IMG/VR virus record: IMGVR_UViG_3300033273_000833
Location: 139,068-203,067 of that record
Strand: one strand, 5' to 3'
DNA length: 64,000 nt
From: a virus
Lineage: Duplodnaviria > Caudoviricetes
A program made the position numbers and the translations under genes. The notes beneath the pieces are model-generated. The model did no database searches and was not told the DNA's origin. It saw nothing but the letters and a program-made list of their open reading frames with translations. Shown piece after piece: positions 3,121-12,570 of this stretch. Each line of letters starts with the position of its first letter. Positions within the stretch are counted from its first letter, which is position 1.

Positions 3121-3434
3121 TCTTTTTATTCAATCATATCATATAATGACATAGCAAATATACATATAACAAATATATAAGTAGCAAATATACAACAAAT
3201 ATATAAAGCTATAATTTAAACAAAAATTTATAAAATTAAAATTCAATTCGTAAAGGGTTGAGCGTCAGTGTTTTGCGGAATCGCCCTGCCAAATTTCGCA
3301 ATTATATGGTATTCAACAACTTACGAATCACAAAGTAGTTTTTTGCAATTTTCGCAATTATATGGTATTCAACGACTTACGACTATTTTAAAAAAAGGCT
3401 TGACTTGCGGAAGTTTTCTGTCATAATTGTATAC

Positions 3435-3812
3435 ATGATCAGAACAAAAAGCGACAAGAGATACGACATCGACTTTAGTAAGAAGGTGTTTGTATATAAG
3501 AATCTTCATAAAGACTGTTGGTCAGTCAAACAAGGCGGGCTTGTCAAGGCACACGCAGACAGCTTGGAGATGTGGGATTGCAGCTTCCAAGTAAACCAAA
3601 AGGGGCGGGCAAAAGTCATTCAAGAAAAGCGTAAGAATGTTCATGCGGGCATTTCAGGCAGGATAGACGATCTTGGTGGAACAATTGCAATTGGCACAGA
3701 AGTTACATACAACCCGTACAAGTATAGCTCTTTTGTAGAAAAAGGCACAGAAAATCCCGTATATTATGCAGGATTTGCATCATTAACCCATAACAGAGTA
3801 CTAGTAGCATGA
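3435..3812 (+). CDS. Conserved phage hypothetical protein (YxNLHKxxWS...KRKNVHA...TYNPY family)
   Basis: Motifs VFVYKNLHKDCWSVK, QEKRKNVHA and VTYNPYK recognised from phage hypothetical proteins. ATG 3435 follows the -10 box. Confidence 0.75.
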   Translation: MIRTKSDKRYDIDFSKKVFVYKNLHKDCWSVKQGGLVKAHADSLEMWDCSFQVNQKGRAKVIQEKRKNVHAGISGRIDDLGGTIAIGTEVTYNPYKYSSFVEKGTENPVYYAGFASLTHNRVLVA

Positions 3813-4009
3813 AAGAAGAATTAAAAAGAATAGAATGTGCAATCGACGGAGTCGCCGACGAATTATTAGAACATCGTCGTCATGGAAACATGGCGGATCT
3901 ACTCAGAGTTATGCGGGACATTAATGAAAATCTATGCACCATCAGCTATGAGCTCAAAGAGTTAGTTAATCAGAAAAAAAACCTTGACATTGAACAAAAA
4001 ATTTCATAG
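3809..4009 (+). CDS. Small helical hypothetical protein
   Basis: ATGA overlap with the upstream gene. Confidence 0.6.
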   Translation: MKEELKRIECAIDGVADELLEHRRHGNMADLLRVMRDINENLCTISYELKELVNQKKNLDIEQKIS

Positions 4010-4018
4010 TATTATATC

Positions 4019-4186
4019 ATGCAAGAAACAATAGATATCACACCAAAATGGTCAGCACTCATTCCTATTATGGTTGAGGTGTTGAAGAGTCCAAAAGCAA
4101 ACAGCTCAGCAAAAGCAGAAGTCACCGAAGAACTACTTCGTCTCGCAAAGATTGTAGACGATCAAAACCAAAAAGCAAAACAATGA
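4019..4186 (+). CDS. 55-aa hypothetical protein (not in ORF track)
   Basis: MQETIDITPKWSALIPIMVEVLKSPK...; ATG 6 nt after the -10 box TAGTAT; ATGA overlap with the next gene. Confidence 0.7.
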   Translation: MQETIDITPKWSALIPIMVEVLKSPKANSSAKAEVTEELLRLAKIVDDQNQKAKQ

Positions 4187-4407
4187 CATTATCAGAATCA
4201 ATTATGGATATCGTTAGAGGTAACCTCGCATGGTCAGATCCCATGTCAACAGTTTGCCTCGATCAACATGAGCGTCATCCCGAAAAGTTTCCACTAGGGA
4301 GTGCATTCCAAAGTGAAGATGAATCTTTAGCAGATATCATTAGAGACTTGACAGTATTACAAGATGAGCGTAGAATAGAATCATCTTTTCAATCAGCAGA
4401 ACTATAA
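4183..4407 (+). CDS. Acidic hypothetical early protein
   Basis: ORF coupled to the upstream gene. Confidence 0.65.
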   Translation: MTLSESIMDIVRGNLAWSDPMSTVCLDQHERHPEKFPLGSAFQSEDESLADIIRDLTVLQDERRIESSFQSAEL

Positions 4408-4411
4408 AATT

Positions 4412-4615
4412 ATGACAGTATTAGACACACCCGAACAAATCGATATGTTTCGATTCCTTAGCCTCAAATCCGCACTCAAGCTAGAGTGTCTTGGAATGAC
4501 TAGAAGAGGTCAATCAGCATATTCAATTATTAAAGCCGAGTACGGATTCAAAGGCAACAAGAACTCCGTCTTAGAACAAATGGAACAAATTATCAAGGAG
4601 TTTAAAAATGACTAA
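4412..4615 (+). CDS. Conserved small phage protein
   Basis: LKSALKLECLGMTRRGQSAYSIIK pattern typical of small phage early proteins. Confidence 0.7.
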   Translation: MTVLDTPEQIDMFRFLSLKSALKLECLGMTRRGQSAYSIIKAEYGFKGNKNSVLEQMEQIIKEFKND

Positions 4616-4811
4616 AGCACAGGTTGAATCACAAGTAGAGAGTTGGAATTGGAATCTCAATATCTTTGAGATTTATGATGAGCTCCGCGATGGGTATACC
4701 GCAGACGAGCAAGAACAACTTTTAACTTACGCATATAATTTTTTCAATAAAGATAAAATGATGGTAGAACTTGCGTCCCACTTTGGAATTAACATAGGAG
4801 AAGATGAATAG
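4608..4811 (+). CDS. Acidic hypothetical early protein
   Basis: AAGGAG Shine-Dalgarno; overlaps the upstream stop. Confidence 0.65.
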   Translation: MTKAQVESQVESWNWNLNIFEIYDELRDGYTADEQEQLLTYAYNFFNKDKMMVELASHFGINIGEDE

Positions 4812-4965
4812 TTCAGCATTAGAATATATCCGTAAGATCCAAAATCTTTTAGAAGACAACGAAGAACTCGTAATCCATAAAAATTCTTTTGAACTTAAAG
4901 ATGAAGAAAATGAAGAGAATTATGATTTTGATGTTGACATGATCAAGCAAATGTACGATAATTAA
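4804..4965 (+). CDS. 53-aa acidic protein (not in ORF track)
   Basis: MNSSALEYIRKIQNLLEDNEELV...DMIKQMYDN; AGGAG upstream; fills the gap in the operon. Confidence 0.6.
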   Translation: MNSSALEYIRKIQNLLEDNEELVIHKNSFELKDEENEENYDFDVDMIKQMYDN

Positions 4966-4968
4966 ACC

Positions 4969-10630: not shown

Positions 10631-10939
10631 TTAGAAGACAAGAGGATCGGGCAATGAATTAGGAGCCGCGAACCAATCGTTTGCGTCAATTACTTCGCCG
10701 TTTAGTACAGGCTCGAATTTGAATTGAGAAACATTTGCATTGGCTATGCCGTTGACGCGTTCGCGTGTGGTCGGAGTATTCCAGCCCGCAAGTGACCAAC
10801 GCACAAGCCCGTCGGCGTCACGCTTTACAATTGCGTTGCCATGTAGCCAAACGGTTTGCCCGTCTGTCTCGGTGTTTCCGACTTTTAAGGATGTGCCAGC
10901 ATTGAAGGCGTTTCTTATTTGTTCTGTAACTTTTCTCAT
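10631..10939 (-). CDS. Conserved phage hypothetical protein
   Basis: MRKVT...VGNT...LHGNAI...SLAGWNTPTTRERVNG pattern; stop lies in the repeat motif. Confidence 0.75.
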   Translation of the reverse strand: MRKVTEQIRNAFNAGTSLKVGNTETDGQTVWLHGNAIVKRDADGLVRWSLAGWNTPTTRERVNGIANANVSQFKFEPVLNGEVIDANDWFAAPNSLPDPLVF

Positions 10940-10966
10940 ATCTTTATTATTAATGATTTTGTGTGA

Positions 10967-11176
10967 TTATGCAAGCGGAAAAAAGGAAAAAAAGAGTTTT
11001 TGTGCAAGTAAATTTTGTGCCCGCTCTTCGGCTTCTTCTTCTTGCTGTTCTAGTTTCTCAAGATCAATTTCTGCCTGAATTACTTTTATTTGAGATTGGA
11101 TGTGTCCAGCGTTTGCATCGAAGACATGATCTTTGATAAGTTGCTCTAGTTTACTGATTTCTTTTTTTATGTTCAT
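10967..11176 (-). CDS. Small coiled-coil hypothetical protein
   Basis: Directly after promoter 11211. Confidence 0.65.
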   Translation of the reverse strand: MNIKKEISKLEQLIKDHVFDANAGHIQSQIKVIQAEIDLEKLEQQEEEAEERAQNLLAQKLFFSFFPLA

Positions 11177-11228
11177 GATATAACTATAAGAAAATTTTTA
11201 TTTAATTGCAAGCTAAAAAGAAAGTTTT

Positions 11229-11420
11229 TTACGCAACCCACTCGACAAGCTCGAACTTGCGAGGCAAGCCAAACTTTGCGAGATCTTTGTTTAAGTCTTC
11301 AATGGATGCGTGGTGCTCGCATTTCATCATTACATTACGCTCGACGACTTCGCCGCTTTTGCGATCAATTATATTTACTTTGGCGATGAAGCCGTTTACT
11401 TGTTTATCATTTTTAATCAT
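11229..11420 (-). CDS. Small hypothetical protein
   Basis: Directly after promoter 11454. Confidence 0.65.
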   Translation of the reverse strand: MIKNDKQVNGFIAKVNIIDRKSGEVVERNVMMKCEHHASIEDLNKDLAKFGLPRKFELVEWVA

Positions 11421-11519
11421 ACCTTACTATCGCATAAAAAACGCAAAAAGTCAAGAAAAACTTTCGACTATTTTTTTGCACAATTCTACTTTTGGTAGGC
11501 TAGTCTCGCAATTAGCTGA

Positions 11520-11795
11520 CTAGCAGTAACTTAGGTAATCGTCTATATCGTCGAAGTTTGCATATGCAAAAGGTGTGCTTCGCTGTCTTGTACCACTATT
11601 ATAGGCAGATTGTGCATCTTCTAGTATTCCAAGCTTCTTGAGATAGGATATTGCACCTTTATCGTAGAATGGCACACCATGGTAGCCTAGCGTCCAGGCG
11701 AAGTCAATTGCTTTGTCGGGGTCATCATCTAAGTAGGCATCCTTGGCGATCTTGCCTGATTCTCTCATTTTAGATTCTAATTTTGTATAGCTCAT
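11520..11795 (-). CDS. Hypothetical early protein
   Basis: Coupled to the upstream gene; C-terminus is encoded within a repeat-motif copy. Confidence 0.65.
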   Translation of the reverse strand: MSYTKLESKMRESGKIAKDAYLDDDPDKAIDFAWTLGYHGVPFYDKGAISYLKKLGILEDAQSAYNSGTRQRSTPFAYANFDDIDDYLSYC

Positions 11796-12031
11796 TACTT
11801 AGCCTTTCTTTCTTTGTAGATTACTGCTTGGTATGCCTTGCGAGCTTCTTGCACTGCATGGAGAGCGTCGAGGATTGCCATGCCTTGGGTGATGGTCAAG
11901 GTTTGGTCGCCTTCGGTGTTGGTTGACTCGGCAAGGAAGTTGAGGTTACCCTCGGCTTTAGATAGGGCAAGCCCTAGGTCGAGCTTGCTACGAAACTTGT
12001 CGATTGTTGTAGTTGTAGTTGTAGTTGTCAT
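11795..12031 (-). CDS. Hypothetical protein with N-terminal poly-Thr
   Basis: After promoter 12069; ACAACT repeats encode TTTTTTTT. Confidence 0.65.
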   Translation of the reverse strand: MTTTTTTTTIDKFRSKLDLGLALSKAEGNLNFLAESTNTEGDQTLTITQGMAILDALHAVQEARKAYQAVIYKERKAK

Positions 12032-12065
12032 ATGTGTTATATACTAAGGTAGTTGATGTTAAAAG

Positions 12066-12260
12066 TCAAGCATTTCTTTCTACTGATTTCCATCCAAAAG
12101 CTTTTACTTTATCTTGATGGCGGGCTTGTGGCAACATTGCCTTGAGTTCAGCAATGCGGGCGAGCTTCCAATCTATCTCGCTTTGATCCATTTTACCTTT
12201 CCACATTTGCATTTGTAGTTTGTCTAATCTTATTTCTCTTTGTATTTGTTCTTCTGTCAT
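12066..12260 (-). CDS. Small hypothetical protein
   Basis: After promoter 12295. Confidence 0.6.
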   Translation of the reverse strand: MTEEQIQREIRLDKLQMQMWKGKMDQSEIDWKLARIAELKAMLPQARHQDKVKAFGWKSVERNA

Positions 12261-12570
12261 ATCTATAAACTAGCAATCTTTTCTTGTTTTGTCAAACTTT
12301 ATTTTACTTTTTTTTAGCTATTACAAACTTAAGTAAAATCTTTTCTCTTTCAGTTAGTTGTGTTGTATCAATCTTTATCATATATACAACATAGCAAAGA
12401 AATGCTAAAAAGTCAAGAAAAACTTTAAACTATTTTATTGCACAATTCTACTTTTGCTAGAGCAATCGCACAATTATATGACTATAAGCAACTTACAACA
12501 AAGTGAAAAAAACTTTAATTTTTTTTAAAAAACACTTGACTTTTGCAGAAAAATTTCTTATATTTAGAGC

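Follow-up and report, generated by a model that had tools for sequence, protein, structure and literature searches.

In T4-type phages, promoter-early stem-loop (PeSL) cassettes form a repeated intergenic module that flanks small ORFans of the variable early region. The module joins a stem-loop terminator with runs of G/C, through an A/T-rich tract, to a strong sigma70-like early promoter, and exchanges take place in its repeated regulatory DNA (PMC2839356, PMC4122927). Sites for integration host factor (IHF; consensus WATCAANNNNTTR) are found upstream of promoters and in helical phase with them (PMC8942017, PMC10380432). The BIME-1/RIB (RIP) repeats of Escherichia coli, dispersed at the 3′ ends of transcription units, join GC-rich palindromes and IHF sites in a composite palindromic unit for which an architectural or topological insulator role has been proposed (PMC3333891). 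Each of these systems resembles in part a dispersed element found in the early region of a phage (Duplodnaviria; Caudoviricetes), described here from a 64,000-nucleotide stretch of DNA (hereafter the window) that constitutes the final 64 kb of a 203,067-bp viral record (IMG/VR IMGVR_UViG_3300033273_000833; hereafter G000). The most visible part of the element is a 27-bp motif, GCAATTATMTGA-N3-TCAACRACTTA, that recurs between early genes. Judging from related phages, this motif appears to be the best-kept part (dyad 2) of a boundary element of ~80 bp with two dyads that is common to a large clade of uncultured, siphovirus-like aquatic phages of ~200 kb, and of which the window holds a decayed, one-armed form and the relatives show the unit more clearly.

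The early region of G000 shares with PeSL cassettes a repeated intergenic module in which an A/T-rich tract and a sigma70-like promoter, with a G/C-run stem-loop at some boundaries, separate reshuffled ORFan cassettes, which supports the PeSL analogy drawn by an earlier, sequence-only reading of the window. Unlike the T4-type phages, G000 belongs to an unrelated, apparently siphovirus-like type, many of its boundaries have dyads without a stem-loop, and crossovers are not concentrated in the element. With IHF sites the element has in common the arm consensus, the informative positions and the placement upstream of promoters in helical phase; it differs from them by its mirrored, overlapping arm pairs, two pairs to a unit, and by a putative host with one IHF-like gene. 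The composition of BIME-1, where two inverted REPs flank one IHF site, is here reversed, as two IHF-like dyads flank one GC core. Moreover, BIME-1/RIB is a high-copy repeat of a bacterial chromosome, whereas the present element is phage-borne and tied to promoters, and the full dyad was not found, allowing up to three mismatches, in five metagenome-assembled genomes (MAGs) of the candidate host.

A pattern search allowing up to three mismatches finds seven copies of the motif in G000, at 3298, 3354, 5735, 6947, 9680, 10608 and 12470, all on the plus strand, against an expectation of none (0 in 100 shuffles). An eighth, at 11508, has four mismatches and is recovered with E = 4e-6 by a lineage profile built from the motif copies of G000 and of G001, a relative with a 97% identical terminase. 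Over the whole 203,067-bp genome this profile finds exactly eight copies, all on the plus strand and all between 3294 and 12499 of the window. The next-best match (E = 0.11) is a so-called inverted partner at about 6900–6929, on the other strand. G001 has the identical set of eight copies, with order and strand unchanged. Hence the eight plus-strand copies listed in the sequence-only reading are borne out, except that the one given as 6949 starts at 6947, and so is its expectation that the motif would be confined to the early region. A scan of viral contigs with 14 bases gave mostly single chance matches.

Four whole relatives (G001, G002, G003 and G004) were compared with G000, and 49 early regions of relatives were collected via their GP88-like protein, 48 of which (>8 kb) were scored. 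An nhmmer family profile, seeded on an ungapped alignment of 11 copies, converged on 279 sites, or 243 once duplicate loci were set aside. The family element is ~81 bp long and reads TG-TAAGTCGTTGA-tta-TCAACGACTTA, then a GC-rich core with short A and T runs on its sides, then TAAGTCGTTGA-taa-TCAACGACTTA. The distance from dyad to dyad is usually 52 nt, and 42 nt in some lineages. At least three elements are present in 29/48 scored loci, a full-size locus typically having 8–12, and G002 and G004 have 10–11 each; in these complete genomes the elements occur only in the early region (3.0–16.7 kb in G002, 91.6–101.3 kb in G004). The arms vary somewhat from lineage to lineage, for example CAAGGACTT in L252 and CAAGCATTT in L264. 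Elements keep syntenic positions, such as the one upstream of the GP88-like gene, even where the GP88-like proteins are only ~72–80% identical. At that position, G000 6900–6972 corresponds to the full element of the L265 type position for position, with the dyad 2 inner arm replaced by AATTATATGA and the core decayed to GCGAAAATCGCC. Hence the degenerate inverted partners seen at 3250, 6899 and 8124 are real and represent dyad 1 of the double-dyad unit, and the AATCGCC lying between the inverted copies is the decayed GC core.

The strand polarity of the motif appears to arise from the overwriting of the dyad 2 inner arm by the AT-rich GCAATTATMTGA. Nearly all family sites give a score on either strand, the two differing by 1.6 bits at the median; the ancestral unit is hence close to symmetric, and its orientation is undefined in most relatives. 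G002 carries the core 10-mer on both strands, and within G000 itself one degenerate copy (E4, see following) retains the opposite arm. Polarity is thus a derived trait of the G000/G001 lineage, and the simplest account is that conversion between copies, acting in direct orientation, carried the derived arm into all of them. The sequence-only reading had proposed polar signals for staged DNA injection; such a genome-polar role, which might also take the form of T5-like strand-specific nicks or of polar replication or packaging signals, would explain why 8/8 copies lie on one strand regardless of gene direction, including those between 9.7 and 12.4 kb, where the genes are on the minus strand and the motif is still on the plus strand. 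However, most relatives have a symmetric element, or one whose best arm may be on either side, and the copies are tied to promoters in helical register. Signals for injection, nicking or replication find no support in these comparisons of assembled sequences, and we regard a role of this kind as scarcely credible.

The eight elements of G000 (E1–E8, all given on the plus strand) show different degrees of decay. E1 (3249–3323; 3249–3330 in the family profile) is the sole one still recognized by the family hidden Markov model, and comprises dyad 1 (3251–3275), a decayed core with AATCGCC (3276–3297) and motif copy 1 (3298–3323). Copy 2 (3354–3379) is an extra tandem copy, 56 nt after copy 1, and ends 20 bp before the −35 of the plus-strand promoter at 3400–3427 (TTGACT-16-CATAAT); 7 nt past the −10 of this promoter lies the ATG of an L5 gp82-like gene (3435–3812). 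E2 (5694–5760) follows a G5/C5-type intrinsic terminator stem-loop (5666–5687) that closes the preceding plus-strand cassette, and consists of a dyad 1 remnant with an exact WATCAANNNNTTR at 5700–5712, a core remnant and motif copy 3 (5735–5760), which ends 30 bp before the −35 at 5791. E3 (6900–6972) comes after the plus-strand terminator with a G5/C5 stem at 6865–6890, 3′ of a DUF932 gene, and has dyad 1 at 6900–6924, a core remnant at 6925–6946 and motif copy 4 at 6947–6972, 30 bp before the −35 at 7003 of the GP88-like gene promoter. The degenerate E4 (8124–8196), upstream of the promoter at 8251, keeps in dyad 2 (8172–8196) the ancestral left arm (AAGACGTTGA) and is without GCAATTAT; its dyad 1 is at 8124–8148. 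E5 is motif copy 5 (9680–9705), at a convergent junction 117 nt downstream of a third terminator (9534–9563); it contains an exact IHF-type 13-mer, and its terminal TTA is the stop codon of a minus-strand open reading frame (ORF) ending at 9703.

In the last three elements the motif is joined to a shared arm of ~30–40 bp, placed between it and the minus-strand promoters at 10544, 11454 and 12416; the extra arms noticed from the sequence alone at 10577, 11477 and 12439 are real. E6 (10577–10633) has its arm at 10577–10607 and motif copy 6 at 10608–10633, where the TTA is the stop codon of a Kyano_Gp96-like gene (10631–10939, minus strand); its main minus-strand promoter is at 10544–10516, and the arm with the motif 5′ end reads as a further promoter-like site (10611–10583). 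E7 (11477–11533) has the arm and a degenerate motif copy 7 (11508–11533), into the right arm of which a minus-strand gene (11520–11795) extends, with minus-strand promoters at 11454–11426 and 11511–11483. E8 (12439–12495), at a divergent junction, has the arm, motif copy 8 (12470–12495) and a minus-strand promoter at 12416–12388, its motif ending 40 bp before the plus-strand promoter at 12536. On the minus strand the motif 5′ end (TTGCAA, TTGCGA or TTGTGC) and the arm (TATAAT or TAGAAT) are 17 nt apart in all three (10583–10611, 11483–11511, 12445–12473), and this second promoter upstream of the main ones could reflect real tandem promoters or chance in AT-rich DNA. Minus-strand hexamers within the motif (TATAAT being the reverse complement of ATTATA) were considered as an explanation of the motif and rejected, as a good −35 is present only at some copies (6978–6950, 10611–10583).

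Mapping of terminators and promoters confirms that the element sits at cassette edges, with a terminator or the end of a gene on one side and the following sigma70-like promoter on the other. On the plus strand the order is gene end, terminator, ~45 nt made of the degenerate palindrome and the GC remnant, the 27-mer, an A-tract spacer, the promoter, and ATG. A terminator stem-loop lies upstream of E2, E3 and, at the distance given above, E5, and is absent at E1, E4 and E6–E8. Element-adjacent sigma70-like promoters are found at 3400, 5791, 7003 and 12536 on the plus strand and at 10544, 11454 and 12416 on the minus strand. From the motif end to the −35, the plus-strand spacers measure 20 bp (3379 to 3400), 30 bp (5760 to 5791), 30 bp (6972 to 7003) and 40 bp (12495 to 12536) and are filled by A6–A8 tracts. 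The spacer is built of A-tract units ~10 nt long, and L256 has one GTGAAAAAAA unit more than G000. Across the family, the closest sigma70-like −35 that faces outward lies most often ~16–18, 27–29 or 38–39 nt beyond the end of the element, in agreement with the 20/30/30/40 series of the window. The Rayleigh statistic is R ~0.4 at a period of 10–11.5 (dereplicated n = 78), with a nominal p of ~1e-6 that is generous, given the kinship of the cassettes and a spacer composed of ~10-nt units. No promoter is present by strict criteria at 88/243 sites. This register would put the promoter-proximal arm near −62, −72 or −82, which we infer to be the face used by upstream activators.

At many early promoters the start codon lies 6–7 nt past the −10 without a Shine-Dalgarno sequence (3427–3437, 5818–5828, 7031–7041, 12564–12573 and others), which implies leaderless early mRNAs. 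A box, GGTCATATCGT, occurs 5′ of both G5/C5 terminators, at 5636–5646 and 6847–6857, and a related GGTCGGTGAGTTAAT box is found 3′ of the DUF932 gene in relatives; the repeated boundary module hence starts before the terminator. Two loci without the double dyad, L255 and L263, have another boundary module at the matching place, 130 nt upstream of the GP88-like gene, in which a GGGCCCCCCGGC-type palindrome and, after it, GAATCGTGCAAAAACTTAGTTGAA precede the −35; G002 has both modules.

The palindromes of the element might instead act as folded nucleic acid, and a hairpin in RNA, single-stranded DNA or a cruciform, serving as terminator or attenuator, processing site, hairpin promoter or priming site, would also explain the polarity. 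Each of the full 80-nt units of E1 and E3 can indeed form one long imperfect hairpin (−23.8 and −16.8 kcal/mol, z ~−2.9), as both are palindromes; in some relatives the core is a GC palindrome between A and T runs, and the minus-strand cassettes have no separate terminator, the element sitting in their 3′ region. However, the substitution pattern is not that of a conserved stem. Departures from consensus in dyad 1 are one-sided: G·G, C·A and G·A cells occur often, whereas its best-conserved pairs show no exchanges of the A-T to G-C type. Local (L1-R1, L2-R2) and long-range (L1-R2, R1-L2) pairings all give 70–77% paired cells, with 186–245 unpaired cells versus 20–32 double changes (~8:1) depending on the scheme, and these equal figures therefore indicate four copies of one sequence motif and not a selected fold. 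The eight 27-mers of G000 have minimum free energies of 0 to −2.8 kcal/mol with z > 0, no better than their shuffles. Nor did central GC cores form consistently stable hairpins in a loose pattern scan, the matches of which were over-wide, so that true elements alone were read. Rfam has no family matching the element, the sole match of the scan being a manA RNA at 2490–2700. The plus-strand copies already sit behind strong intrinsic terminators, and no giant virion RNA polymerase is encoded. The few contigs from the RNA run cover some gene bodies, and their absence over the elements carries no meaning. On these comparisons the element would act as a protein site in double-stranded DNA and not as a hairpin, a structural role being very improbable.

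The conserved positions resemble those of IHF sites. Information is concentrated at TCAA and, four bases on, at TTR, the N4 between them being weak even within single genomes. The exact WATCAANNNNTTR 13-mer occurs 5.9 times per kb inside elements versus 0.14 per kb outside, a 41-fold enrichment, and TCAANNNNTTR is present in 219/243 elements, whereas a control 13-mer, reversed and not complemented, is absent or barely enriched. Among the G000 copies the one at 9680 matches WATCAANNNNTTR exactly and five others have one mismatch. The overwritten arm of G000 is an A/T-rich tract immediately 5′ of the IHF-type consensus; in strong asymmetric IHF sites, an A/T-rich tract lies 5′ of the consensus. 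In the minus-strand cassettes of the L265 type, the opposite arm of dyad 2 decays. One good arm per dyad being evidently enough, an asymmetric binder fits better than a symmetric dimer. The boxes of LexA, CRP/FNR, DnaA, ParB and CtrA were also considered, and the spacing fits none of them.

If a protein binds the element, it might be encoded by the phage or by the host. The sequence-only reading had suggested an operator array for an early shut-off repressor, and a whole-region switch by a phage-encoded regulator of unknown fold, either such a repressor or an anti-activator binding the dyads as dimer or tetramer, accords with palindromic double dyads at a fixed ~52-bp (5-turn) spacing in the early region alone. 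The arm differences between L252 and L264 and the lineage-wide replacement by GCAATTATMTGA may likewise reflect co-evolution with a phage protein, and most early ORFs are without known function. The stoperators of L5-like (cluster A) mycobacteriophages likewise repeat a short asymmetric site many times within small intergenic gaps; their repressor is known, and their orientation follows transcription. The window encodes homologs of L5 gp82 and gp88, but unlike stoperators its motif ignores gene direction, and no repressor gene was found. No HU/IHF, Xre-type helix-turn-helix or excisionase-type helix-turn-helix gene was found in the five phage genomes, nor any DNA-binding Pfam domain in ~20 early ORFs. 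Profiling of the ORF families up to 8 kb on each side of the GP88-like gene gave no strict partner of the element (the best, 17/29 versus 0/13). With positions from about −56 to −150, the sites precede the UP-like tract and do not cover the core promoter, one-armed copies persist that a symmetric dimer would not favor, and N4 is weakly conserved even in one genome. A protein-binding array is plausible, and the regulator gene expected to go with it was not found; we consider a phage-encoded regulator unlikely, if still a serious candidate.

Exchange of cassettes is evident between close relatives. G000 and G001 are collinear except for the minus-strand block, where G001 has other DNA in place of the G000 gene 10290–10475, a 79%-identical copy of which sits in G001 at the location of the G000 gene 11229–11420. 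Among the four breakpoints (10290, 10553, 11232 and 11446), two are at the promoter/arm edge of E6 and E7 and two in a second repeated promoter (TTGCAA-17-TATAGT) without element. More distant relatives have the same cassettes in other orders. Logan contigs of marine metagenomes, holding 44–71% of the words of the region, diverge from G000 at 10290 (where the variant continues with a dyad), 11446, 12452 and 5630, and at 12452 the variant has an ancestral-type dyad instead of the derived one. These observations, together with the lack of the element in some close relatives and the concerted evolution implied by a derived arm in all copies of a lineage, would suit an element that is mainly an evolutionary seam, either shared homology of the PeSL kind or a selfish repeat of the REP kind, kept alike by recombination and served by no binding protein of its own. 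Yet of 907 homology breakpoints, taken family-wide from the ends of BLAST matches, 8% fall inside elements versus 4% of uniform random positions, and for non-coding breakpoints the figures are 14% versus 12% of random non-coding positions, or 22% versus 17% within 20 nt. Homology breakpoints are thus not enriched at the elements over other non-coding DNA, and the G000/G001 swaps spare the 27-mer, which speaks against the earlier suggestion of recombination sites for cassette shuffling. Exchange appears to happen in intergenic regulatory DNA, as in PeSL cassettes, without the 27-mer being a preferred crossover site. Moreover, homology alone predicts neither the TCAA-N4-TTR pattern nor the helical register with the −35, and syntenic positions are kept between divergent loci. 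That the element is mainly a seam is, accordingly, improbable in our view.

The reading we prefer is that of a docking module for an architectural protein of the IHF/HU class, predicted to work on double-stranded DNA in phase with the promoter and within a PeSL-like terminator-promoter boundary; we give it an even chance of being correct. What the sequences show is the anatomy of the unit, its restriction to the early region, the phasing, the want of structural signals and the exchange of cassettes; binding by a protein, the nature of that protein and any influence on transcription are inferred. The ancestral unit consists of two imperfect palindromes (TAAGTCGTTGA-N3-TCAACGACTTA) ~52 bp apart around a GC-rich core. 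It follows a terminator or the end of a gene, in a gap that is mostly untranscribed, and a whole number of helical turns, with phased A-tracts, separates it from the −35 downstream. A DNA-bending protein would dock on this double-stranded element. It probably comes from the host, since early promoters have to be active at a time when no phage protein has yet been made. Once bound, it would shape the DNA upstream of early promoters, and so aid transcription, insulate neighboring cassettes, or both. In the G000 lineage, GCAATTATMTGA has replaced the dyad 2 inner arm in every copy, so that a formerly symmetric site is now oriented and has a single arm; the uniform plus-strand polarity is a by-product of copy-to-copy homogenization and no signal in itself. 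Element, terminator, A-tracts and promoter together form a PeSL-like repeated boundary whose homology permits cassette exchange. That the binder is specifically a host protein like IHF is a narrower claim, quite possible but on balance not the expected outcome. The five candidate host MAGs have 2–3 HU/IHF-family matches each, in most cases two genes, and the three with scored copies have one HU-like and one IHF-like gene each.

Several observations weigh against this preferred reading. The phasing statistics come from partly related cassettes and could instead reflect insertions and deletions of 10-nt A-tract units. No element accompanies the strong promoters at 1105, 1409, 1881 and 2392, and next to E5 there is no promoter, so that the element is not simply required for promoter activity; it is an accessory of boundaries and not a universal promoter part. 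By the family profile, 13 loci and G003 have no element copy. The likeness to IHF sites amounts to the arm consensus restated against a motif from Proteobacteria, when the host is probably verrucomicrobial. The IHF-like protein of the MAGs scores higher with IHF than with HU models, yet falls below the curated cut-offs, and the MAGs are themselves of a candidate host. The mirrored arms are 3 nt apart, and a gap of 3 nt is tighter than one IHF dimer of the E. coli type could use symmetrically, as seen from the IHF-H′ structure. Finally, there is conservation outside the IHF consensus, namely an A in N4, a G after TTA, and GCAATTAT in the G000 lineage.

If the docking module is nonetheless real, a very large uncultured clade (420 relatives of the G000 terminase in IMG/VR) assembles its early region from standardized boundary units, each joining a terminator to a double dyad that docks a protein, phased A-tracts, a promoter of host type and a leaderless ATG. 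This would carry the PeSL idea to phages other than the T4-like ones and give it a defined protein-binding component, testable in vitro without culture of the host, and it would provide a practical marker for early regions and cassette borders in metagenomic phage genomes. More tentatively, and with odds that we put well below even, the double dyad might represent an undescribed class of phage enhancer/insulator: a helically phased, rigid platform at every early cassette boundary, to which an IHF-like bender of the host, or else a DNA-binding protein of the phage with an unknown fold, would be recruited. Such platforms would operate in hundreds of phages of ~200 kb that infect Verrucomicrobiota and related aquatic hosts, as a plug-and-play grammar for adding early genes.

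The G000 terminase has at most 25% identity with those of cultured phages, and megablast of the 10-kb region found no match among cultured phages. This low identity and a 2940-amino-acid tape measure protein, indicating a long tail that is not of the T4 type, place G000 outside the T4-like myoviruses. The tape measure gene and one for a 2003-amino-acid tail protein with ~15 fn3 domains occupy 37385–52234 (minus strand) and point to a long-tailed, siphovirus-like virion; the combination suggests an exceptionally long tail. An N4-like giant virion RNA polymerase, which would use hairpin promoters, was ruled out, as these two proteins account for the giant ORFs. The host is probably a marine member of the Opitutales (Verrucomicrobiota), to judge by a phage DUF1501 gene (L301 2952–4244, corresponding to 106951–108243 of the G000 record) that is 74–82% identical to genes of marine Opitutia/Opitutales MAGs. 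This gene appears to be a recent acquisition from the host and serves as a host clue for the whole clade, its identity being a clue and not proof.

Among other features of the phage, G000 has a tmRNA with tag GNKNRVKAFGLKAKKLALAA at 66699–67062 of the record (ARAGORN). The manA RNA of the window (RF01745, 85 bits) stands alone, bracketed by a perfect TTGACA-17-TATAAT promoter (2392–2420) and a strong terminator (2733–2762). Very AT-rich tracts with short direct repeats lie at 600–1100, 3130–3215 and 9570–9600, two of them directly upstream of E1 and E5. Their repeats include two copies each of GCAAATATACA and ACAAATATATAA, AAATAG-type repeats, and AATCGGGCGAAATAA twice, near 1010 and 1082; G-rich repeats of the AGTGGG type are found at 722–756. 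These AT-rich tracts could be curved DNA, iterons or a feature of the genome end.

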